A stretch of 64,000 bases of DNA, taken from positions 552 to 64,551 of the forward strand of contig CAYJLB010000008.1 in NCBI GenBank assembly GCA_964370845.1. Reading direction: 5' to 3'. The first letter of the stretch is position 1. Every line of letters starts with the position of its first letter. The position numbers and the translations under genes were made by a program. Below, piece after piece: positions 12,438 to 45,125 of this stretch. The notes below the pieces were generated by a model that saw nothing but the letters and a program-made list of their open reading frames with translations, was not told the origin of the DNA and made no database searches. The DNA comes from an uncultured Oscillospiraceae bacterium (GTDB lineage: Bacteria; Bacillota; Clostridia; Oscillospirales; Ruminococcaceae).

Positions 12438-12466
12438 TTGACTTTTTTTGTGAAATTGTTTATAAT
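12438..12466 (+). promoter_or_regulatory. sigma-A type promoter of the lipoprotein/ABC operon
   Basis: TTGACT (12438-12443), 17 nt, TATAAT (12461-12466). Confidence 0.6.
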
Positions 12467-12682
12467 TAAATTTATAATTTATAAATAGTTGTTTTCATTC
12501 GATTTACTTTTCCTGTCATTTTTTGTGGAAAAATAAACGTTGGGTAAAGCGGGAAACTGTTTTGCCTCCCTTTTTTGGAAAGAATGAACTTTTTTTACTG
12601 CTTATGCGGTTTATTTAGGTTGCTTTCTTTTCTTTAAGGAGCAACTTTTTATTTTATTTAAGGAGAAAGGATTGGGCAAAAA
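12467..12682 (+). promoter_or_regulatory. ~210-nt structured 5' leader with terminator-like hairpin (candidate riboswitch/attenuator, class unknown)
   Basis: 8-bp hairpin 12543-12550/12559-12566 with loop GGGAAACT. Stem GTTGCT/AGCAAC (12619-12624/12640-12645) is followed by TTTTTATTTTATTT. The block 12526-12582 is homologous to 18877-18933. Confidence 0.4.
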
Positions 12683-15600
12683 ATGAAAAAATTATTGGCA
12701 TTATTTTTAGCATCGTTTATGTTACTTGCTACCGCTTGTGAAAGTGACGAAAATTCCAAAGAAACGGGAGAAGTTTCACCCGAAATTGAAAAAAGTGTGG
12801 AAATATTCGAAGGAATTGACTTTGAAACTTCCGAATATAAGCACATTACAAATGGCGGAATTACTACAGATGACGTTCTTCCATATGCAATTGACGCAAT
12901 TACTGGAGCAACTGTTACTGTTGAGGGGCCTGCTGTTGACACAAGTATCCCCCTTTCAGTTCGTGAACTTGAAAATAAAAATGAGGGAATTGTCCGCGGA
13001 ATTTACAGCGATTCAACTGGTGAATTTATCTACGAGGGTGTGGATTTATACTATATTATAAACGAAATGACTGACGGAGATAATGGAATTTTCCTCACAG
13101 ATAATGCTTATGCTGTTGAGCTTCGCAACGATGAAAGGGCGACTATTGCAACAATTAAAATAGAAGATATTACTAAAGCCCACGAAAATAATGAGCCTAT
13201 TATCATAGCTTACGGAATTGGAACTGTTGACGGAGAAATTTCTTCTCCTTTTGTTTATGACGGTGAAACGGAGGAAGCTGTTCCTCTTGGATATATTGAG
13301 GAATTGAACAACGATGACGGTTGTTTAAAACTTGTTTTTGACGGAAATAAATATTCAACCGAAAACAATTACACAACTTTCGACAATGTAGCTTATATTT
13401 ACATTCAAGAGGAAGTAACTCCTGGATTTAAGCATACTTTAGCCGACAACGAAAGCTATGATTCTTCCGATTATTTAGACTATATTTTGACAATCCGTGG
13501 TGGAGCGTTAGGACGTGAGTTCACTATGACTTTGGAGGAACTTGAAAACTTAGTTAAATATGATGAAAATAATGACGTAATCGAGGGTGGAATTGGCTTT
13601 AGAGAACGTTATTCCCTAGCTAACAATGCTTATTGGTATGTAAATGAGTATGAGGGACTTGATTTGTACAAAATGCTCACTTATTTAGGTATGAGAACTG
13701 CCGAAGATATGGGGCGAGCAGACTCAAGAAACACTTTAATTAGCTTTATTGCTGCGGACGGACACCCTTCTAACGAAACTTTTTCTGTGGAAACTTTATC
13801 CTATCCCGATGTGTTTGGATTTTATCAAAAAAATGCTTTAGACACTGGGGACGGGTCATATGCACCGTCAAATAGCGACCTTGTTAATTCGGGTTATCCT
13901 GTGTTGCTTGCTTATGGTGTAAACAGCTATCCTTACACAATTTCTACCTTTGATAATGGCTATTTATCAGGTCTTGGAAACAGCGGTGGACCTTTTAGAA
14001 TTGTATTTGGAAAAACTCAATATTACCACGCAAACGGCTCTTATCAAGTTCAATTTGTAAACGAAATTATTGCCGGTGAAAACATTCAATATAACACTCA
14101 CAAATACAGTGATAATGCTGATTATAACGCACTTTCAAACAATACAATTTCCTTAAACATTACAAACTGGAAAGAGGAAACTATTGCAAATGAAAATATT
14201 TCAGTTGGTGAAATTGAAGACATTATTTACGGTGAAAATGTGGACTTTAAAGTTGCTCAAACTGCAAAAGTTAAGGATATTTATGAAGTTGAAGAACTTG
14301 ACATTTATGAGGGAGTTGACCTTGAATATTTCTTAATGGAATATGCAAAAGTTCCTGGAACTGTTGGAACTGTAACTTTCACTTCGGAAAATGGTGAAGT
14401 TTTAACTACCGACATTGACAGAATTTTCGGGCTTGGAAAAAACACTTCCGACGGTGAGGAAGTTAAGGCTGAATTATCTCCTATTTTAGCTTTTGCAAAA
14501 AATGGCTCTCCTTTAGTAATTGACGAAAATTCAGCAGGATATGAGGGAGAAGTTTCCTTAAATCCTTTGTCAGATAGCGACCCTACAACCTATTCTGTAA
14601 ACAATAGCGGAGGACCTTTAGCTGTTATTTTACCAAAAACTACAACTGAAAATGCTGAGTTTTTAGCCAATGTAGTTTCAATAAATGTAACTATCGAAAT
14701 GGACACCTATTCCCACTTAGAAGCTCCTTATGACAGCCTTTCAAAAAGCGAAGTTTCTTTCTACGGTGAGGGTTTAGAAAAAGAAATGACTTACACAGTG
14801 GCGGAAATTGAAGCTATGCAAATTGACGCTAAAACTTATGATTATAGCGTAGTAAACAGCGAAAACGCAAACAGCTACGAAGAACGTTACAGAGGTGTTC
14901 CACTTTACAATATTTTAACGGACATTGGCTTAATGAGTAACGCTGGCGATGTGATTGTTCACTACGGAAATGGGGAAACTAAAACAATTTCTCTTTCATT
15001 ATTAAAAGGGCAAAATTATCAAAACTACATTTCCCCAGATAAAGGGAATATTTCAGCAATGCTGGCTTTTGGAATCGGACAGACTGATGAAACTGCAAAA
15101 TATGGATATCCTCTTGTGCAAGATGAAAATTCTGACGGATTTTTTGGAGAAATCGGCAATTTAGGTGGTCCTTTGAAATTAGTTGTTCCGCAAGAAGATG
15201 AATCCGCTATAAATGGTGAACTTTTCTGTGAAAATGTGACAGCAATTGAAGTTACTGCAAATGATATTCAAACTTGGGGACATGAAATGAGTGACATTTA
15301 TGCTGAATTTTTGGACTACGAATTTGAATTTGTTGTCAAAAATGAAGTACACGAATGGCGAGAAACCTTCACTGTTGCTCAATTAGAAGCGTTAACTGGC
15401 TACATTGTTCGTGATACTTACTCCGTTCTTGAAATTGGAGAGTGCGAGGGTGTTGACATTTGGAACTTTGTAAACTTAATTGCTGGGGAAGTTGAAGGGA
15501 TTGAAAACCCTGTTTCAGTAACAGTTTACGCTGAGGACGGATACAAAAATGACCTACTTTCAACTTATAATTTAGAAGCTCTTGAAGAAGGAGTTCTTGA

Positions 15601-15838
15601 CGCAAATAACGAGAGAAAAGCCTTGATAATTGCATACGCACTGAACGGTTACCCACTTGTTGACAGCGAAAATCACGAGGGTTACACAGGGCTTGCGGGC
15701 AATAGTTCAGGACCTCTTAGAGTTATCGCTGAAAATGTGCAAGGTGCTTCTGTAAAATTATTTAACAAACTTATTGTTACAATTGAGGGCGATGAGGAAA
15801 TCAACATTACAGTTGACGAAAGCATTTTTGAAAAATAA
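12683..15838 (+). CDS. 1051-aa secreted lipoprotein with five tandem sulfite-oxidase/MsrP-like (Oxidored_molyb-like) modules
   Basis: Signal peptide plus a Cys in MKKLLALFLASFMLLATAC. Five ~160-200 aa modules each show Y.GVDL.., a ..(A)Y(A/G).NG.PL.. segment, and GGP(F/L)(R/K/A)(I/L/V)V (nt ~13985, ~14606, ~15165, ~15707; degenerate CLKLVF at ~13320). Fold assignment is by eye. Confidence 0.8.
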   Translation: MKKLLALFLASFMLLATACESDENSKETGEVSPEIEKSVEIFEGIDFETSEYKHITNGGITTDDVLPYAIDAITGATVTVEGPAVDTSIPLSVRELENKNEGIVRGIYSDSTGEFIYEGVDLYYIINEMTDGDNGIFLTDNAYAVELRNDERATIATIKIEDITKAHENNEPIIIAYGIGTVDGEISSPFVYDGETEEAVPLGYIEELNNDDGCLKLVFDGNKYSTENNYTTFDNVAYIYIQEEVTPGFKHTLADNESYDSSDYLDYILTIRGGALGREFTMTLEELENLVKYDENNDVIEGGIGFRERYSLANNAYWYVNEYEGLDLYKMLTYLGMRTAEDMGRADSRNTLISFIAADGHPSNETFSVETLSYPDVFGFYQKNALDTGDGSYAPSNSDLVNSGYPVLLAYGVNSYPYTISTFDNGYLSGLGNSGGPFRIVFGKTQYYHANGSYQVQFVNEIIAGENIQYNTHKYSDNADYNALSNNTISLNITNWKEETIANENISVGEIEDIIYGENVDFKVAQTAKVKDIYEVEELDIYEGVDLEYFLMEYAKVPGTVGTVTFTSENGEVLTTDIDRIFGLGKNTSDGEEVKAELSPILAFAKNGSPLVIDENSAGYEGEVSLNPLSDSDPTTYSVNNSGGPLAVILPKTTTENAEFLANVVSINVTIEMDTYSHLEAPYDSLSKSEVSFYGEGLEKEMTYTVAEIEAMQIDAKTYDYSVVNSENANSYEERYRGVPLYNILTDIGLMSNAGDVIVHYGNGETKTISLSLLKGQNYQNYISPDKGNISAMLAFGIGQTDETAKYGYPLVQDENSDGFFGEIGNLGGPLKLVVPQEDESAINGELFCENVTAIEVTANDIQTWGHEMSDIYAEFLDYEFEFVVKNEVHEWRETFTVAQLEALTGYIVRDTYSVLEIGECEGVDIWNFVNLIAGEVEGIENPVSVTVYAEDGYKNDLLSTYNLEALEEGVLDANNERKALIIAYALNGYPLVDSENHEGYTGLAGNSSGPLRVIAENVQGASVKLFNKLIVTIEGDEEINITVDESIFEK

Positions 15839-15859: not shown

Positions 15860-16918
15860 ATGAAAAAAATAATTGCAATTTTACTGGCTTTAACCTTGAC
15901 AATTTCCCTTTCTGCATGCAATAATAAAAAGAATAGTCAAGTGGAAACTTCAGCTACAACTGCCCAAACTACTGCACAAACTTATCCATTTGAAACTGTA
16001 ATCGACGCTTCCGACGACGTTTTGGAAGTGCCAGAGGACAGCGATAATATTACTGTAGCTTCAACTTATGCTGTAGTTGTGCCATTTTTGAAGGCTTTGC
16101 AAATTACTGAAAATGTAGTTGCGATTAATGCTAAAACTAAGTTTTGGACGGACACTGACGGATTTTTGGATAATGCTGGCACTGTAGGACGTGGAGTTGT
16201 TGACCTTGAAGCACTTGCTACTTTTGAACCAACTTTGTTTATAAATCGAGCATTTGACGATAAAACTAAAACTGCTGTGGAAAATCTTGGAATAGAGTAT
16301 ATGGCTGTCCACGCTGAAACAATTGAGGACACTTACAAAACCCTCACTATGCTAGGCGATTATTTCGGAGCGTCCGAGAGAGCAAACGAAGTGATAACTT
16401 ATATGGAAGAAAAATTTGCTGAAATTGCTGAAATTGTCAGTAAAATCCCCGAAGATGAAAAAGTTTCTGCTTTTGTAATGGGAGGGCAACTTGGAAGTGT
16501 TGCTGGGCAAAACTTTTTGCAGTCAGAAATGATTGAGCTTGCTGGAGGAATTTCCCTTGGAAAAGAATATTCCACAAGCGATAGTTGGGCAATGATTGGA
16601 GTGGAGGAAATTTTTGCAAATGACCCTGATTTCCTATTCACAACAGCTTCCACTGTTTTAGATTATTCAATTGAAAAAATTTATGGTGATGACACTTGGG
16701 GAGCATTAAAAGCTGTCCTTAATGAAAATATTTATCAAATTCCAGCGAAAATTCACGCTTGGGATTTACCTGGAGTTGAGCCTGTAATCGGGACTTTTTG
16801 GCTACTTCATAAAATGTACCCTGAATATTTTTCTGCAAATGAATTACAAGCCGAAATTGATGAATATTACACATTTATTTTTGGTGAAACTTTTGACAGC
16901 GAATATTTAGGCTACTAA
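15860..16918 (+). CDS. ABC importer substrate-binding lipoprotein, class III (FecB/BtuF/FhuD-like periplasmic binding protein)
   Basis: Lipobox LSLSAC, 352 aa, placed directly before a FecCD permease and its ATPase. Substrate cannot be deduced. Confidence 0.8.
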   Translation: MKKIIAILLALTLTISLSACNNKKNSQVETSATTAQTTAQTYPFETVIDASDDVLEVPEDSDNITVASTYAVVVPFLKALQITENVVAINAKTKFWTDTDGFLDNAGTVGRGVVDLEALATFEPTLFINRAFDDKTKTAVENLGIEYMAVHAETIEDTYKTLTMLGDYFGASERANEVITYMEEKFAEIAEIVSKIPEDEKVSAFVMGGQLGSVAGQNFLQSEMIELAGGISLGKEYSTSDSWAMIGVEEIFANDPDFLFTTASTVLDYSIEKIYGDDTWGALKAVLNENIYQIPAKIHAWDLPGVEPVIGTFWLLHKMYPEYFSANELQAEIDEYYTFIFGETFDSEYLGY

Positions 16919-16951: not shown

Positions 16952-17980
16952 TTGAAAAGTACAAAAACTAAAATTTCTTTTTGGAAAATAATTGTAATCC
17001 TATCTTTACTTTTGTTGGTTTGCATAGTCCTTGCGGTTTGTGTTGGGAAATTCCCTGTCACTCCCCTTGAAAGCCTTGAAGTTTTGTTTACACAGATTTT
17101 TGGGCAGGAAAACAACCTTTCCGAAATGACAAATAACGTTGTAATGGGGCTTAGAATTCCACGAATTTTAGTAAGCGTTACCGTAGGAGCTGCACTTTCC
17201 GTCGCTGGGGCTTCTTATCAAGGCGTTTTCAAAAACCCGTTAGTTTCCCCCGATTTTCTCGGTGTTTCTGGGGGAGCGTGCATTGGTGCAGCTTTAGCAA
17301 TTGTAATGGCTCTTCCCTATGAATTTACTCAAATTTTCGCATTTTTGGGTGGAATTTTTGCAGTTGCAATCACAATTTCTATTCCTATGGCTTTGAAAAA
17401 TAAAACTAACATTGTTTTGGTTTTATCGGGTGTAATTGTAGGTTCAGCCGCTTCTTCCGTCCTTGGATTTATCAAATATATTGCTGACCCAGAAACTGAA
17501 CTTGCCGCCATAACTTACTGGACAATGGGGAATTTTTCCTATGTTACTTTGGAGGAATTGTTTGTAGTTTTCCCAGCTGTTTTGATTTGTTTAGTGGTGT
17601 TATTCCTTATTTCTTGGCGAATTGACATACTTTCTTTAGGGGAAGATGAGGCGAAAACTCTTGGGATAAACATTACATTTACAAGAAATATCACAATTAT
17701 TTGCTCAACAATTTTAACTGCAACATCTGTTTCACTTTGTGGAACTATCGGTTGGATAGGGCTTGTAATTCCCCACTTTGCACGAATGACAACGGGAGCA
17801 AACCATACTAAATTGCTTCCTGTTTCAGCGTTAATCGGCGGTTTATTTATGCTTTTTATTGACACTTTAACAAGGACAATTGGACCCGAAGAAATGCCAG
17901 TAAGCATTTTAACTGGAATAATTGGCGCACCTTTTTACTTGATTTTACTAATGAAAAATCAAAAAGAAAGGTTGGTGTGA
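16952..17980 (+). CDS. FecCD/BtuC-family ABC importer permease
   Basis: 342 aa, about 9-10 TM segments, conserved GTIGWIGLVIPHFARM segment typical of FecCD. TTG start. Confidence 0.9.
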   Translation: MKSTKTKISFWKIIVILSLLLLVCIVLAVCVGKFPVTPLESLEVLFTQIFGQENNLSEMTNNVVMGLRIPRILVSVTVGAALSVAGASYQGVFKNPLVSPDFLGVSGGACIGAALAIVMALPYEFTQIFAFLGGIFAVAITISIPMALKNKTNIVLVLSGVIVGSAASSVLGFIKYIADPETELAAITYWTMGNFSYVTLEELFVVFPAVLICLVVLFLISWRIDILSLGEDEAKTLGINITFTRNITIICSTILTATSVSLCGTIGWIGLVIPHFARMTTGANHTKLLPVSALIGGLFMLFIDTLTRTIGPEEMPVSILTGIIGAPFYLILLMKNQKERLV

Positions 17981-17985
17981 TTTAA

Positions 17986-18762
17986 ATGATTTTTGAGATA
18001 AAAGACCTTTATTTTGAATATAAAAAAGGAAAACCTATACTTTCCGACTTAAATTTATCATTAAAAGAGGGGGAAATTCTCACTATTTTAGGCCCTAATG
18101 GAGCGGGAAAGTCCACTTTGCTTTCTTTAATGATAAAGCTTTTAAAACCATGTGAGGGGGAAATTTTTCTCGACAGTGAAAATTTAGCCGACTTAAAGGA
18201 AAAAGATATTGCAAAAAAAGTGAGTTTTGTTCCACAAAGTGTTTCCCCTACTTTCAGTTATTCCGTTTTGGATTACGTTTTAATGGGGAGAGCGCCAATG
18301 ATTTCCTATCTTTCAAGACCCTCAAAAGCAGATATTGAATGTGCAAAAACTGCAATTTCTGACATGGAAATTTCCCATCTTTCCGACAAATCTATCCTTG
18401 AAATAAGCGGTGGAGAGAGGCAACTCGCAACCATTGCACGGGCGATTGTACGCAGTCCAAAAGTGATTTTATTTGACGAGCCAACTTCTCACCTTGATTT
18501 CGCTAATCAATTGAAAGTTTTGCGAATTGTGAAAGGTTTATCCGAAAGAGGATTTTCTGTTGTAATCACAACCCACAACCCTGACCACGCTGTGTTACTT
18601 TCCGATAAAACAGCTTTAATTGACCGAAATGGAAACATTATTAGCGGAAAAACTGAGGAAATTCTCACTGAAAATATGCTAAAAAAAGTCTATGACACCG
18701 ACTTAATTTTGCGTTATATTGACGAAATTGGACGTTTTTCCTGCCTTTATCCTAATTTATAA
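17986..18762 (+). CDS. ABC importer ATP-binding protein (FepC/BtuD-like)
   Basis: Walker A GPNGAGKST, signature ISGGERQ, Walker B ILFDEPTSHLD. Confidence 0.92.
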   Translation: MIFEIKDLYFEYKKGKPILSDLNLSLKEGEILTILGPNGAGKSTLLSLMIKLLKPCEGEIFLDSENLADLKEKDIAKKVSFVPQSVSPTFSYSVLDYVLMGRAPMISYLSRPSKADIECAKTAISDMEISHLSDKSILEISGGERQLATIARAIVRSPKVILFDEPTSHLDFANQLKVLRIVKGLSERGFSVVITTHNPDHAVLLSDKTALIDRNGNIISGKTEEILTENMLKKVYDTDLILRYIDEIGRFSCLYPNL

Positions 18763-18772
18763 CAGTTTAAAC

Positions 18773-18801
18773 TTGACAATTTGTTAAAAAAATGATAAAA
18801 T
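18773..18801 (+). promoter_or_regulatory. sigma-A type promoter for the 19066 lipoprotein gene
   Basis: TTGACA (18773-18778), 17 nt, TAAAAT (18796-18801). Confidence 0.55.
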
Positions 18802-19065
18802 CAAATGTAATTAATTTCAATCTATATTTAAATATCTAATTTATATTCCGAATTTATTTTTCTAAGGCTTAACCGCTATGAAAAGTAAATCTGGGTTAAT
18901 TTGGAAACGAATTAACCTTCCATGTTTGAAAAGGGATAAAAACAGCTTCACAAACTGTTGAAGCAATAGCCAATTTATTGGTTTGTTTATAATGCCTTTT
19001 CGCCTAAAAACGAAAAGGTTTTTATATTTTTGAAGAAATTTCTATTTTGAAAGGAACGTATTAAA
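18802..19065 (+). promoter_or_regulatory. ~260-nt structured 5' leader, paralogous to the 12467-12682 leader (candidate riboswitch/attenuator)
   Basis: Hairpin GGTTAATT-TGGAAACG-AATTAACC (18894-18917). A competing TTAACC lies at 18869-18874. Second hairpin at 18945-18964, then an internal intrinsic terminator. Confidence 0.45.
18995..19030 (+). terminator. leader-internal intrinsic terminator
   Basis: CCTTTTCG-CCTAAAAA-CGAAAAGG followed by TTTTTATATTTTT, 36 nt before the start codon. Confidence 0.65.
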
Positions 19066-20121
19066 ATGAAAAAATTATTAGCCCTATTGTTGTCACTTTC
19101 TTTGGTGGTAACTCTTGCCGCTTGTAGCGAGAATGCTCCTGCTGAAACTACTGAAAACACAACAGTTGCTACTGAAGCACAAACTGAAGCTGAAACCACT
19201 GAAGAAACTGAGGGAGAAACCGAAAGCGACAGTACTGAACTTCCTGCTCCTGAAATTAAGGAAGCTGTTGGAGTTACAATCCCTGAATTTTCTGTGAATG
19301 TAAATGGTGTTGACGTGACAAACGTTACTCTTGCTGACCTTGCTTTATATGAAGTTACTGCACACTCAATCAACAGTGCTGGAACTACATCTGTTACAAC
19401 TTACATAGGATTTACTGTTAAAGATATTCTTGCAGCTTCGGGAATTGAAGCTACTGGTGCAATGGTTGTAACTGCTGATGACGGATATGAAATTGAGTAT
19501 TCTGCGGAAGTTGCAAATGCTGATACTACTTTACTTGCTGTTAGCAAAAACGGCGAACAATTCGGAACTGCTCCTTGGCTTGCTCCTTGTTCTGAACAAG
19601 TTACTGGTCAATACTTAAAAAATGCTATAACTATTTCATTTGACGGTGCTGAAAGTGGCACTAGTGATGAAGAACCAGCAGAAGATGCTGATGCTGAAGT
19701 AAGCGAAGTTCCAGCTCCTGAAAAATCAGACAAAACTGCTCAAGTTACATTCTCTGATTACTCATTCTTAATCGATGGAACTCCAATCACAAATGCTACT
19801 TTAGAAGGTTTATCAATTTACAAAGTTGACGCTTCTACTTTAAAAGATGATGCTGTTACAACTTCAACTTACACAGGTTATGTTCTTTCCGACGTTTTAG
19901 CAGCTGCTGGAATTACTGATTTCACTTCAATTGTTGCTGTTGCAAATGACGGTTACGAAGTTGAATATGACAAAGAAACTGCTATGAACGAGTTCACAAT
20001 TGTTGCAATTGAAAAAGACAAAGAACTTGGCGAAGACGGAACAATTTGGATTGCTCCAGCTACTGAAACTGCTGGCAAAATGTACGCAAAATTAGTTGTT
20101 GAACTAAAGATTAATAAATAA
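19066..20121 (+). CDS. 351-aa secreted lipoprotein with two Oxidored_molyb-like modules separated by acidic T/E-rich linkers
   Basis: Lipobox VTLAAC. Two internally similar modules: ..YEVTAHS..YIGFTVKDILAASGI..VTADDGYEIEY..LLAVSKNGEQ.. and ..YKVDAST..YTGYVLSDVLAAAGI..VANDGYEVEY..IVAIEKDKE.. Confidence 0.8.
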   Translation: MKKLLALLLSLSLVVTLAACSENAPAETTENTTVATEAQTEAETTEETEGETESDSTELPAPEIKEAVGVTIPEFSVNVNGVDVTNVTLADLALYEVTAHSINSAGTTSVTTYIGFTVKDILAASGIEATGAMVVTADDGYEIEYSAEVANADTTLLAVSKNGEQFGTAPWLAPCSEQVTGQYLKNAITISFDGAESGTSDEEPAEDADAEVSEVPAPEKSDKTAQVTFSDYSFLIDGTPITNATLEGLSIYKVDASTLKDDAVTTSTYTGYVLSDVLAAAGITDFTSIVAVANDGYEVEYDKETAMNEFTIVAIEKDKELGEDGTIWIAPATETAGKMYAKLVVELKINK

Positions 20122-20195: not shown

Positions 20196-20885
20196 ATGAA
20201 AAAACTAATCAAAACTCTTGCAATTATTACCCTTTCTACTTCAATTTTACTCACCTCTTGCCAAAATAGTAACGGGGGACAAACTATTGAAATCCCACTT
20301 CCTTCCCCTGGTGATGATATGTTTGGCGTTGACACAAACATTAATATTGAAACAATTGACAATTATTTAGGCATTGAGGACGTTGTATATGTTGATATGA
20401 GAATGTTTATCGACACTGCAAGGTATGAGGACATTGGCGGTGAATCCGTTTTAACAAAAACTATAGAAGGCTTTAAAATTATACCTTTCCCTTACATTGC
20501 GACAATGGCTGCACTTCCTGTTGAGGGTGCATTTGTGGGCGACACTTTATTTGATGTTGAATGGGGTAATGGCACTGAAATCCTTTCTGTAACGGAAAAT
20601 TATAAGGAGAGTATGCTTATTTTAGATGAACTTTTTCCTAAAGACAAGAAAATTTTCATAATGTGTGGTGGCGCTGGTTATGCGGGAATGACAAGGGCAT
20701 TGCTAATTCACCTCGGTTGGAACGAAGACTTGCTTTATAACGTTGGAGCTGGCTGGTTTTATGACGGAGAAAATGCCCTTGAGCTTGTAAAATTCCCAGA
20801 AGATGCAAATGACCCGAACATATACGCAACTTGGAGAGCGGATTATGCATATTTTGACTTTAATTTAATGACTCCTGTTGCATAA
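20196..20885 (+). CDS. secreted lipoprotein with rhodanese-like domain
   Basis: Lipobox ILLTSC. The pattern VVYVDMR..(~90 aa)..KKIFIMCGGAGYAGMTRALLIHLGWNEDLLYNVGAGWFY matches the rhodanese layout (xxDxR ... C-loop-R ... G(F/W)..V.N..GG). The loop is longer than the canonical one. Confidence 0.55.
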   Translation: MKKLIKTLAIITLSTSILLTSCQNSNGGQTIEIPLPSPGDDMFGVDTNINIETIDNYLGIEDVVYVDMRMFIDTARYEDIGGESVLTKTIEGFKIIPFPYIATMAALPVEGAFVGDTLFDVEWGNGTEILSVTENYKESMLILDELFPKDKKIFIMCGGAGYAGMTRALLIHLGWNEDLLYNVGAGWFYDGENALELVKFPEDANDPNIYATWRADYAYFDFNLMTPVA

Positions 20886-20912
20886 AACATACAGAAAGGA
20901 ATGGGCATTTTT

Positions 20913-21482
20913 ATGAAAAATAAAGGAATTTTGCTTGTTTTAACCCTTGCTTTAGTGCTTTTTACAAGTTGCTCAACTGAGGTTGAAGAAAGTTCTTCAT
21001 TTCCAATTATAAAATTTGACCACTTTTCTTCGGGGGGAGTTTCGGAGGAATACGAGGCTGTTATTTTGTTCGAGCAAAGTAATTCCACCTTTACTTCATA
21101 TCAAGTTGCATTTTTGTCCTGTAACTGCCGTGATGCTTTGGTGAGTTATTTTTCAGTTATGTACGTTGAACTTTTGAACTCAAAGGAAAATGTTGAGGAC
21201 TCGGCAATACGTTCAATAACCTTTGGAAACAATCAAGGTTTATGGGGGGACAGCAATCCAAACTACTATGTTCCCGAGTACACTGAGGAATATTATGATG
21301 AGCATTTTGTGCAAAAGCTTGTAAAAGCTACAAAATCTGACATTGACAGTTGGGCGGGTTACGGCGAGTCTATTGAGCCTATTGGTGTCGATTTAATCGC
21401 TGGTGCAACTGTTTCAACCAGCAATATAACCTCAATGTTACAAAGTTTATTTGAATACCACGAAGAAAACTATTACTCCTAG
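20913..21482 (+). CDS. secreted lipoprotein with FMN_bind-like C-terminal motif
   Basis: Lipobox-like LFTSC. GVDLIAGATVSTSNI (nt 21390-21410 for DLIAGAT) lies ~25 aa from the C-terminus, as in NqrC/RnfG/PplA FMN_bind domains. The start is probably ATG 20913; the ORF opens at 20901. Confidence 0.55.
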   Translation: MKNKGILLVLTLALVLFTSCSTEVEESSSFPIIKFDHFSSGGVSEEYEAVILFEQSNSTFTSYQVAFLSCNCRDALVSYFSVMYVELLNSKENVEDSAIRSITFGNNQGLWGDSNPNYYVPEYTEEYYDEHFVQKLVKATKSDIDSWAGYGESIEPIGVDLIAGATVSTSNITSMLQSLFEYHEENYYS

Positions 21483-43268: not shown

Positions 43269-45125
43269 TTATAAAGTTTCTGAAAGACCTAGTCTATCTA
43301 AAGTTTCTTTTGTTGGAATTCCAAATTCGTCCCAACCACGAAGCTCATAATATCTGTCAAGCATTCCGTCAACGTCAGGGATATTATTCGCAGAACCACC
43401 TGTCATACGACGTTTTTTCATTCTTCCTGGAAGTTTATCATCTTTTCTTGACTGCCCGTCACGAACTAAATACATTCTCTTTAAGTTGAAAATTCTTTCA
43501 CCAGTTTCCATTAATTCAGCGGCAGTTGTATCCCAACCAGTAATTTGATTTAACCACTCAACCACGCAATCAGCAGTAGCTGAACCCGCTCCAGGAGCGC
43601 CCATTAAGAACTTACATACTGTCAAAGAGTCGCATAAACACATAATATGCTCAAGTTCAACGTTCATTTCAGGTTTATTTTCAGTGGAATGGTTTTTAAG
43701 TTCAACAAATTTGTCACCATAAAATCCAAATCCATCATAAGTTCCACCGTATTCATTACCGTGTGAGTTTGCGGATAAGTGGCAAGCTCCACGAGGGCTT
43801 ACTGCATAAGCAAGTCCAATACTATCAGCGTAACGTGGGTCATGAGCAGGGAAATCCATTCCTCTAACATGTACAGCAAATTCAGGAGCAATTCCTCCTA
43901 AATGTTCAGCAGCAATTCTTGAACCATCGGCTAAAATATCACCAAAATCTTCACGATAAGCGATTTTTCTCAAAATTTCAATCATATCATCGCCTTCGCC
44001 CCAACGAGCTTTACAACCAAGCATTTCTTCGGTAACAAGACCTCTTTCATATGCTTCCATAACAAACCCAACCGCTCCACCAGCACCAATAGTGTCAAGT
44101 CCGTATCTGTTGCACATTTCATTACCCATACAAATAGCTTCATAGCTGTCAATTAACAAGTTTGAACCCAAAAGTCCCACTGTTTCGTATTCAGGACCAG
44201 CAGTTTCCTGAGATTTATATTTACCCTCTTTAACTTCAACAACTCGTCCACATCTAATTGAACAGTTTGCACAAGAATAACGCCCTGTCAAAAGGTTTGC
44301 GTTAAGGTAAGGCGTTGCAATTCCTTCAGTGTCAAAGCTTCCCTGTGCCCAGTTTTTGATTGGCAAGTCACCGATTTCCTCAATAAAAGGTACAGCACCA
44401 GAAGTTCCGCCCTCTCTCATACCTTCCATATTTTTCATGATAACAGGCGCCCATTTTCTAACGGAAGCATTAAATTCGTCAGGTTTTGCAACAGGAGTAT
44501 CAACATCACCGTCAACAACAATCGCTTTAAGTAATTTTGAACCCATAACAGCACCAACACCGCATCTACCCGCAGTTCGCCCGTCATTTCCGTCATTCAT
44601 AATACAAGAAATTAGCGACAAGTTCTCACCAGCAACACCAATACTTGCAGTACAAGAACGTTTTCCGTGGTCAGCTCTTAAAATATCGTCAACTTCAAAA
44701 GTATCTTTTCCCCAAAGGTGAGCCGCATCTAAAATTTCGATTTTTCCGTTAACAATGTTTAAATAAACAGGTTTTGGAGATTTACCAGTGATAATTAGCC
44801 CATCAAAGCCAGCTTTCTTAATTCTAACTCCCCATTTACCGCCCGAATTAGCCTCACCATAAGAACCAGTAAGTGGTGAACGTGTAACAACTTGATAACG
44901 TCCGCCGTTTGGAGTTTTTGTCCCCTCAACAGGTCCTGTCAAGAAAATTAGTGGGTTTTCAGGGCCAAGTGGGTCCGTTTCAGAAGTTGTTTCATCATAC
45001 AAAATTCTTGCACCAAGTCCACTTCCTCCGATATATTTCCTCATAACTTCTTCACTATAAAAAGTGTTTTCCATCTTACCTGTAGTAAGGTCAATTCGCA
45101 TTATTTTGCCTAAGTATCCGTACAT
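43269..45125 (-). CDS. aor: aldehyde:ferredoxin oxidoreductase family (tungstopterin) enzyme
   Basis: 618 aa, N-terminus MYGYLGKIMRIDLTTGK.. typical of AFOR_N, and Cys-containing 4Fe-4S ligand segments (CANCSIRCGR). Confidence 0.88.
   Translation of the reverse strand: MYGYLGKIMRIDLTTGKMENTFYSEEVMRKYIGGSGLGARILYDETTSETDPLGPENPLIFLTGPVEGTKTPNGGRYQVVTRSPLTGSYGEANSGGKWGVRIKKAGFDGLIITGKSPKPVYLNIVNGKIEILDAAHLWGKDTFEVDDILRADHGKRSCTASIGVAGENLSLISCIMNDGNDGRTAGRCGVGAVMGSKLLKAIVVDGDVDTPVAKPDEFNASVRKWAPVIMKNMEGMREGGTSGAVPFIEEIGDLPIKNWAQGSFDTEGIATPYLNANLLTGRYSCANCSIRCGRVVEVKEGKYKSQETAGPEYETVGLLGSNLLIDSYEAICMGNEMCNRYGLDTIGAGGAVGFVMEAYERGLVTEEMLGCKARWGEGDDMIEILRKIAYREDFGDILADGSRIAAEHLGGIAPEFAVHVRGMDFPAHDPRYADSIGLAYAVSPRGACHLSANSHGNEYGGTYDGFGFYGDKFVELKNHSTENKPEMNVELEHIMCLCDSLTVCKFLMGAPGAGSATADCVVEWLNQITGWDTTAAELMETGERIFNLKRMYLVRDGQSRKDDKLPGRMKKRRMTGGSANNIPDVDGMLDRYYELRGWDEFGIPTKETLDRLGLSETL

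Follow-up and report, generated by a model that had tools for sequence, protein, structure and literature searches.

The window analysed here, a 64,000-nucleotide (nt) stretch of an uncultured Oscillospiraceae bacterium (GenBank assembly GCA_964370845.1, contig CAYJLB010000008.1, positions 552 to 64,551 of the forward strand), holds a cluster of seven genes preceded and divided by two untranslated leaders. Leader 1 precedes four genes, and leader 2 precedes three more, all for lipoproteins (351, 229 and 193 amino acids, aa). The cluster encodes a BtuCD/FecCD-type ATP-binding cassette (ABC) importer together with four lipoproteins, two of them with predicted PruR-like pterin-binding folds. Both leaders very probably belong to the riboswitch class that senses the molybdenum or tungsten cofactor (Moco/Tuco; Rfam family RF01055), and the following features, numbered from the first base of the window, are the ones on which this assignment and its consequences rest:

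12438..12466, plus strand: predicted sigma-70-type promoter of leader 1, TTGACT-17-TATAAT
12485..12601, plus strand: predicted riboswitch aptamer 1, Moco/Tuco class, P3-less (RF01055, 61.5 bits, E 2.5e-12)
12683..15838, plus strand: 1051-aa lipoprotein with an N-terminal FMN_bind-like motif, DAITGATVT, and five sulfite-oxidase-fold-like repeats
15860..16918, plus strand: substrate-binding lipoprotein, Peripla_BP_2 (class III, FhuD/BtuF/MolA type; Pfam, 78.5 bits)
16952..17980, plus strand: FecCD/BtuC-type permease (Pfam FecCD, 293 bits)
17986..18762, plus strand: ABC ATPase (Pfam ABC_tran, 110 bits)
18773..18801, plus strand: predicted promoter of leader 2, TTGACA-17-TAAAAT with an extended TG
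18834..18951, plus strand: predicted riboswitch aptamer 2, Moco/Tuco class, P3-less (RF01055, 77.1 bits, E 6.3e-17)
19066..20121, plus strand: 351-aa lipoprotein with two predicted tandem pterin-binding modules of about 130 aa, of PruR-like/sulfite-oxidase fold
20196..20885, plus strand: 229-aa lipoprotein, probably rhodanese-like, with an invariant C157-GGxGY loop
20901..21482, plus strand: 193-aa lipoprotein; an FMN_bind-like flavinylation-type motif, D..(S/T/A)GA(T/S)V, lies at its C terminus, and SCxCRD is invariant

Class, fold and switching of the two leaders

An Rfam scan of the entire window, with gathering thresholds applied, returned exactly two matches, both to RF01055 and both above its gathering score of 36 bits (61.5 bits for leader 1 and 77.1 bits for leader 2). 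Neither aptamer is truncated: each spans model positions 1-135, with only positions 59-73, the optional P3 stem, deleted. The two are the only RF01055 matches in the 2.32-Mb assembly, where no further copies were found. For aptamer 1 the paired elements fall as follows:

12495-12500/12582-12587, plus strand: P1
12503-12513/12527-12537, plus strand: P2
12542-12552/12557-12567, plus strand: P4, with a GAAA tetraloop at 12553-12556
12568-12569/12577-12578, plus strand: P5

This fold accounts for features that a first-pass annotation, made from the sequence without database searches, had recorded in leader 1. That annotation had placed a near-consensus promoter ahead of a long leader; the promoter was located again upstream of the ATG at 12683, where the next long open reading frame (ORF) begins, and it agrees with the consensus at 11 of 12 positions, a match to consensus only. 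The interval between the two, a leader predicted from sequence, is about 210 nt. The annotation's ungapped alignment of 12541-12586 with 18892-18937 (29 of 46 positions identical) was reproduced, and its 8-bp hairpin (12543-12550/12559-12566 versus 18894-18901/18910-18917), which is P4, remains paired in both leaders although four of the eight pairs differ (T.G versus T-A, A-T versus T-A, G.T versus T-A and C-G versus T-A). The GGAAAC of the loop is kept as reported, but the loop is not 8 nt long, as an extra G-C pair (12552/12557) closes the tetraloop. The conserved GAAAArTAAAy upstream of the hairpin is the 3' strand of P2. The downstream elements given as CCTyCC and TTTGrAAAG are likewise present in both leaders, reading CCTCCC then TTTGGAAAG in the first and CCTTCC then TTTGAAAAG in the second, and CCTCCC...TTTGGAAAG corresponds to P5 and the conserved junction into P1. 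The stem GTTGCT/AGCAAC and its T-run were found in leader 1 at 12617-12647.

Primary-sequence similarity of the leaders is, by itself, barely above chance: the best ungapped 46-mer shared between them scores 30, where 100 shuffles gave 26.2 on average and 29 at most. The significance of the shared structure comes instead from the covariance-model matches and from covariation over 12 homologous aptamers. To the annotation, the leaders carried an unclassified cis-regulatory RNA. Its structured, terminator-ended, cis-regulatory character stands in both leaders, whereas "unclassified" does not; the Rfam search that had been named in advance as the check on that word gave confident RF01055 matches for both, and the reported failure to match the Moco consensus is probably explained by the absent optional P3 stem. 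The RNA is an additional member of a class described in 2008, not a new class.

The conserved core nucleotides of the class (CCGA, GGG, CCUCCC and UUUGGAAAGG) are present, both in the alignment to the model and as invariant columns of the 12-aptamer alignment, and the GGAAAC of the P4 tetraloop is invariant in all 12. The P2 tetraloop receptor of leader 2 (UCUAAG...UAUGA) is near consensus; that of leader 1 is degenerate (CCUGU...UGUGG versus the consensus CCUAAG...UAUGG), which counts against the assignment of leader 1. Regulski et al. (2008, PMC2408646) defined the class, its P3-less subtype and the link of that subtype to the tungsten cofactor. The link is correlative, a point against reading P3-less aptamers firmly as Tuco sensors. 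P3 was absent in 58 of their 176 original Moco RNA examples, and their list already included copies of this subtype ahead of Syntrophomonas wolfei genes read as "putative sulphite oxidase". Both features of this subtype are found here, namely no P3 stem between P2 and P4, and a tungsten-type aldehyde:ferredoxin oxidoreductase (AOR) gene in the host genome.

Conservation was assessed by a search for the cluster with one genome per species, which found 40 further loci (L005-L044), mostly in metagenome-assembled genomes (MAGs) of Oscillospiraceae and other Clostridia. The cluster is rare, with about 40-50 species found, and nearly all of the 40 loci have the same seven genes in the same order. 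At 10 of the 40, all in other Clostridia species, an RF01055 match lies directly upstream of the cluster on the coding strand, and P3 is absent from each of the 12 aptamers (two here and 10 orthologous). From the alignment of these 12, RNAalifold recovered P1, P2, P4 and P5; of the 26 pairs in this structure, 18 are marked by compensatory changes. Paired cells made up 91.7% of the total, against 77.1% in column shuffles (none of 500 reached the observed value) and 35-50% when pairing partners were slid by 1-3 columns; the covariation score was 0.527, against 0.250. Conservation and covariation in orthologous leaders, a check that the annotation had also proposed, are borne out by the same aptamer, with compensatory changes, before 10 orthologous clusters.

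These observations, together with the position of the aptamers before genes linked to the molybdenum or tungsten cofactor (sulfite-oxidase-fold lipoproteins and an importer) and with a terminator/antiterminator platform, make it very likely, on the evidence of sequence comparison, that leaders 1 and 2 are Moco/Tuco riboswitches with a cis-regulatory role. That the shared hairpin is a chance likeness of two AT-rich leaders with no RNA function draws on the marginal excess of the 46-mer over shuffles (30 versus a maximum of 29), and is vanishingly improbable given covariance-model E values of 2.5e-12 and 6.3e-17 and an aptamer with compensatory changes at the same operon position in 10 other species; chance similarity was rejected on these matches and the covariation.

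For a more sensitive search we trained our own covariance model, R1, on the 12 aptamers; ahead of the other 28 orthologous clusters it detected no additional aptamer, and RF01055 matched in none of 40 relatives of the same family or order. R1 also gave one extra match, at 39 bits, to a weaker Moco-like aptamer just downstream of the cluster in one locus (L031:12351-12470), where it lies ahead of an ArsR-family gene and of genes for a formate-dehydrogenase-type molybdopterin oxidoreductase, MobA, FdhD and a formate/nitrite transporter (FocA). In two Acutalibacteraceae MAGs (L024 and L028) the cluster is shorter, lacking the 1051-aa lipoprotein, and the riboswitch stands directly before the binding-protein gene. 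Aptamer 2 is internal to the cluster, in the interval 18763-19065 between the ATPase and 351-aa lipoprotein genes. The corresponding gap measures 43-69 nt in L045-L047, loci with called genes, and in L005-L044 R1 detected no aptamer there; the internal second copy therefore appears specific to this genome among the 41 examined.

Between aptamer and ORF, a hairpin followed by a U-run was found for all 12 aptamers. In the two leaders of the window the elements are:

12577..12632, plus strand: antiterminator of leader 1, GGAAAGAA (12577-12584) pairing with UUCUUUUC (12625-12632), G12586 with C12623, and AACUU (12587-12591) with AGGUU (12617-12621)
12617..12660, plus strand: intrinsic terminator of leader 1, stem 12617-12629/12636-12647 with core GTTGCT/AGCAAC, then TTTTTATTTTATTT
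18927..19032, plus strand: expression platform of leader 2, with antiterminator UGAAAAGG (18927-18934) pairing with CCUUUUCG (18995-19002)
18994-19002/19011-19019, plus strand: terminator of leader 2, GCCUUUUCG/CGAAAAGGU then a U-run, competing with the antiterminator

The antiterminator of leader 1 overlaps the 3' strands of aptamer P5 and P1 as well as the 5' arm and loop of the terminator. The terminator hairpin of leader 1 folds at -10.9 kcal/mol, against -2.3 +/- 1.6 for shuffles. Folded freely, 12575-12660 adopts the antiterminator (-18.6 kcal/mol), and with 12575-12587 blocked it adopts the terminator (-16.5 kcal/mol); for leader 2 the free fold is at -26.0 kcal/mol, and blocking the aptamer strand gives -23.9. 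In both leaders antiterminator and terminator are mutually exclusive. From this arrangement we infer that ligand favours termination, an OFF switch giving feedback repression. With no ligand, the aptamer 3' strand GGAAAGAAUGAAC would base-pair to the terminator's 5' arm and RNA polymerase would read through into the operon; with cofactor bound, P1 and P5 would hold that strand, the terminator would form and transcription would stop.

The importer and its lipoproteins

A FecCD permease, a Peripla_BP_2 binding protein and an ABC ATPase encoded together constitute a type II ABC importer. No cluster protein matched an NCBIfam model at any curated cut-off, and no equivalog was returned for the importer substrate.

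Pterin-binding folds are predicted most clearly in the 351-aa lipoprotein. Its AlphaFold model (mean predicted local distance difference test, pLDDT, 82) has two modules, and the best Protein Data Bank (PDB) matches by Foldseek are PruR structures (7kom, 7kou, 7kp2 and 7rkb; probability 1.0, target-normalised template-modelling score, TM(target), 0.5-0.6), followed by YedY/MsrP and SorA. Module 1 carries an invariant P-W-x-A-P-C (P170-W171). Homologues of this protein are numerous in metagenomes, and among the matches listed every source name was "hypothetical protein". For the 1051-aa lipoprotein, profile matches were found to Oxidored_molyb (26 bits, weak, residues 695-811) and FMN_bind (E 0.037), and its count of five modules rests on reading repeated motifs, (Y/C)(E/R)G(V/L)(D/P)(L/I) and GGP. 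A hidden Markov model built from the modules of the 351-aa lipoprotein gave no significant match to the 1051-aa protein, and HHalign joined one such module to residues 724-771 of it at 85.8%. Counting both proteins, the cluster would encode seven surface modules of pterin-binding fold.

The two smaller lipoproteins are less readily placed. The 229-aa protein has a low-confidence AlphaFold model (pLDDT 58.8) with weak rhodanese fold matches, suggestive of a rhodanese-like protein, and PDB sequence searches with it and with the 193-aa protein found nothing significant. Motifs of the kind flavinylated by ApbE are DLIAGATVS (20901-21482) and DAITGATVT (12683-12930); the single ApbE gene of this genome (G000) lies on another contig (G000:C56:10450-11304). 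The cluster lipoproteins carry Sec/lipoprotein signals and no twin-arginine motif.

Cofactor supply and the cargo of the importer

A profile search of the assembly found no MoaC, MoaA (Mob_synth_C), MoeA_N, MoCF_biosynth (MogA/MoaB-type) or MoaE. Enzymes of the DMSO-reductase and xanthine-dehydrogenase families were also not found in the assembly, nor was a ModA/WtpA-type binder, the sole SBP_bac_11 match scoring 33.6 bits against 130-197 bits for true ModA/WtpA. A single PBP_like_2 protein was considered as a TupA tungstate binder and rejected, being PstS beside PstC. One pterin-cofactor enzyme was found in the genome, and it lies in the window, 23 kb from the riboswitch locus:

43269..45125, minus strand: tungsten-type aldehyde:ferredoxin oxidoreductase (AFOR_N and AFOR_C), 618 aa

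AOR is the probable consumer of the sensed cofactor. The GC content of its gene (0.405, against a window background of 0.337) is compatible with horizontal acquisition. Of 40 relatives sampled, 24 represent genera within the family and 16 represent other families within the order, and 32 are at least 90% complete; one of the 40 has MoaC and none has AOR. Because MoaC is so rare in relatives, and because the contig belongs to the lineage, the absence of moa genes is unlikely to be an artefact of assembly. A mis-binned contig was rejected as its cause: PolA is 60-67% identical to that of same-family genomes, its nearest named matches are in uncultured Clostridiales, Ruminococcus and Oscillospiraceae MAGs, and the GC content and tetranucleotide profile of the contig are typical of the genome.

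Of the 41 genomes that carry the cluster, which were also surveyed for cofactor genes, 37 have AOR. MoaA, MoaC and MoeA are all absent from 10 of the 41, this genome included, and eight of those 10 keep AOR; the two MAGs with the shorter cluster (L024 and L028) lack all three biosynthesis genes and retain AOR genes. Genes for AOR flank the cluster in L045/L046, L011, L022, L023, L028 and L033, and ModE/TunR-like regulator, MoaD/ThiS-like and ThiF-like genes flank it in several loci. In L045 (12844-21038), and in L046 with the same layout, the cluster stands between two AOR genes; both loci also carry an HTH_17 plus PBP_like (ModE/TunR-like) regulator, a radical SAM/SPASM protein, a MoaD_arch-like protein, a DAO/Fer2_BFD and Pyr_redox_2 pair, and ThiS plus ThiF. 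The DAO/Pyr_redox_2 pair precedes the cluster in L047 too.

What the importer carries is a separate question from what the riboswitches sense. We favour, at about an even chance, the reading that the operon imports the pterin cofactor itself, whether Tuco, Moco or metal-loaded molybdopterin. The cofactor is the likeliest cargo because no biosynthesis genes were found in a genome that nonetheless encodes a tungsten-type AOR, and because an importer and pterin-fold lipoproteins would be repressed by a cofactor riboswitch. The riboswitches would then sense how much tungsten or molybdenum pterin cofactor is present inside a bacterium apparently unable to synthesise it. Multi-module PruR-like surface lipoproteins would capture the cofactor, its reduced and sulfurated state might be maintained by the flavin- and rhodanese-like lipoproteins, and a BtuFCD-like pump would import it to supply AOR.

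Several findings weigh against this reading. No riboswitch was found at 28 of the 40 orthologous loci. Most cluster-bearing genomes can apparently make the cofactor: MoaC is present in 30 of the 40 others, and MoaA and MoeA in 30-31 of the 41 counted with this one, and the idea that the cluster is confined to cofactor auxotrophs was rejected, since about three quarters of cluster genomes have the pathway. This genome is 88.8% complete. The three biosynthesis genes lie together on one contig in many of the positive genomes, and MAG incompleteness could therefore mimic some of the losses. Finally, the substrate-binding protein (SBP) matches MolA of Haemophilus influenzae (HI_1472; PDB 3psa/3psh) at 35 bits (E 7e-8).

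The MolA match belongs to the main rival reading, possible though rather unlikely, in which the transporter is a MolBC-A-like type II ABC importer of plain tungstate or molybdate, or of a metal chelate; the operon would then be an ordinary metal-uptake unit of the Moco regulon, and the accessory lipoproteins are left unexplained. Control of molybdate and tungstate transporters is a classical role of Moco riboswitches (PMC2408646), and the roughly three quarters of cluster genomes that can make the cofactor would need the metal only. In addition, a strong ModA/WtpA match is absent from about half of the cluster genomes, and the cluster could be their metal transporter. For the present genome this account fits less well. 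MoeA, MogA, MoaA, MoaC and MoaE were not found here, and MoaC is absent from 39 of the 40 relatives; with no cofactor-pathway genes found, metal alone would be of no use to AOR. Nine other cluster genomes are without MoaA, MoaC and MoeA, seven of which keep AFOR_C genes. The SBP is nearer to unliganded structural-genomics proteins (4ovk, E 6e-21) than to MolA, its similarity to several proteins of unknown ligand reaching 78 bits, and the seven predicted surface pterin-fold modules have no role in oxyanion uptake.

More doubtful is the proposal that the lipoproteins act outside the cytoplasm as a flavin-linked molybdo- or tungsto-enzyme system (for instance a reductase resembling MsrP or sulfite oxidase, with flavinylated carriers), with the riboswitch only matching apo-enzyme synthesis to cofactor supply. 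It would account for the Oxidored_molyb matches in both pterin-fold lipoproteins, for the FMN_bind-like flavinylation motifs of the 1051-aa and 193-aa proteins in a genome that has ApbE, and it agrees with the reading of similar S. wolfei genes as putative sulphite oxidases (Regulski et al., PMC2408646). The predicted switching logic runs the opposite way from that expected, as OFF switches would repress a cofactor-using enzyme when its cofactor is abundant. Export is a further difficulty, since the Sec/lipoprotein signals come with no twin-arginine motif and cofactor-loaded lipoproteins could therefore not be exported. The nearest fold is that of PruR, a non-enzymatic pterin binder, and the ABC importer within the cluster would have no explanation.

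The interest of the locus lies in the operon that is controlled and in the apparent cofactor auxotrophy of the host: two copies of a predicted cofactor-sensing OFF switch stand before an importer, in a lineage where no pathway for the cofactor was detected but which has an enzyme that needs it. Moco is generally seen as something that each cell has to produce on its own. A passage in one source (PMC9026282) holds that most organisms are unable to take up Moco as a nutrient. Full-text literature searches found no description of a bacterial Moco or Tuco importer and described uptake for nematodes only, apart from one speculative sentence on type 11 secretion systems; a comparative survey of riboswitch regulons lists no Moco-uptake category (PMC3766115). 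Should the cofactor prove to be the cargo, the cluster would be a means by which bacteria take up the intact cofactor or metal-loaded molybdopterin, and it would imply a Moco/Tuco "vitamin" economy among gut anaerobes, in which the tungsten- and molybdenum-enzyme capacity of gut Clostridia could not be predicted from biosynthesis genes alone. The riboswitch-operon pair would then also be a direct experimental handle, as the riboswitch can report entry of the cofactor.

Comparison with known systems

The two aptamers share with the Moco RNA motif (RF01055; archetype, the Escherichia coli moaA leader) the P1-P2-P4-P5 architecture, the GAAA loop on P4, the CCGA, GGG and CCUCCC...UUUGGAAAGG elements, and a terminator platform. 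They differ from it in their targets, which are not moa, mod or tup but a FecCD-type importer and PruR-like lipoproteins, in a host that shows no cofactor biosynthesis, and in the second copy inside the cluster, unique among 41 genomes. MolBC-A of H. influenzae (HI1470/71/72), which carries molybdate and tungstate, belongs to the same transporter family as the importer, and the similarity of the SBP to MolA is weak but significant. However, MolBC-A has no pterin-fold lipoproteins and no riboswitch, and the present host lacks detectable enzymes to use the free oxyanion.

PruR is a pterin binder whose sulfite-oxidase fold is degenerate, with a P-W motif in place of the molybdenum-ligand cysteine (PMC11194511). 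The modules of the cluster resemble PruR (7kou, 7kom, 7kp2, 7rkb) in their predicted degenerate sulfite-oxidase fold of about 130 aa, in being secreted, and in having the P-W motif at the site of that cysteine. Whereas PruR is a single-domain protein of Proteobacteria that partners the c-di-GMP enzyme DcpA and binds small pterins, the modules here are tandem lipoprotein repeats in Clostridia, with an ABC importer as partner, a Moco/Tuco riboswitch upstream, and a conserved Cys following the PW (P-W-x-A-P-C). Neither DcpA (GGDEF-EAL) nor a TorS/BaeS-like sensor was present among the neighbours of the cluster. The cluster modules share the fold of PruR, judging from the structural models, and probably its ligand type, and are not PruR orthologues. 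The likeness to sulfite-oxidase-family molybdoenzymes (YedY/MsrP, SorA) is more distant: the lipoproteins have no Tat signal, their modules are only about 130 aa long, and their Oxidored_molyb scores are 26-38 bits over partial profile ranges.

The closest parallel in logic is the cobalamin riboswitch before BtuFCD in B12 auxotrophs, where a cofactor-sensing OFF riboswitch represses an importer, and the same logic is found in the pairs FMN-RibU, THF-FolT, TPP-ThiT and preQ1-QueT. BtuG and BtuH of Bacteroides are accessory surface lipoproteins that capture B12, and the putative capture lipoproteins of this cluster recall them. The importer described here shares its Peripla_BP_2/FecCD/ABC family with BtuFCD; the ligand class of the riboswitch is different, and the parallel with the cobalamin riboswitch is an analogy of mechanism, not of family.

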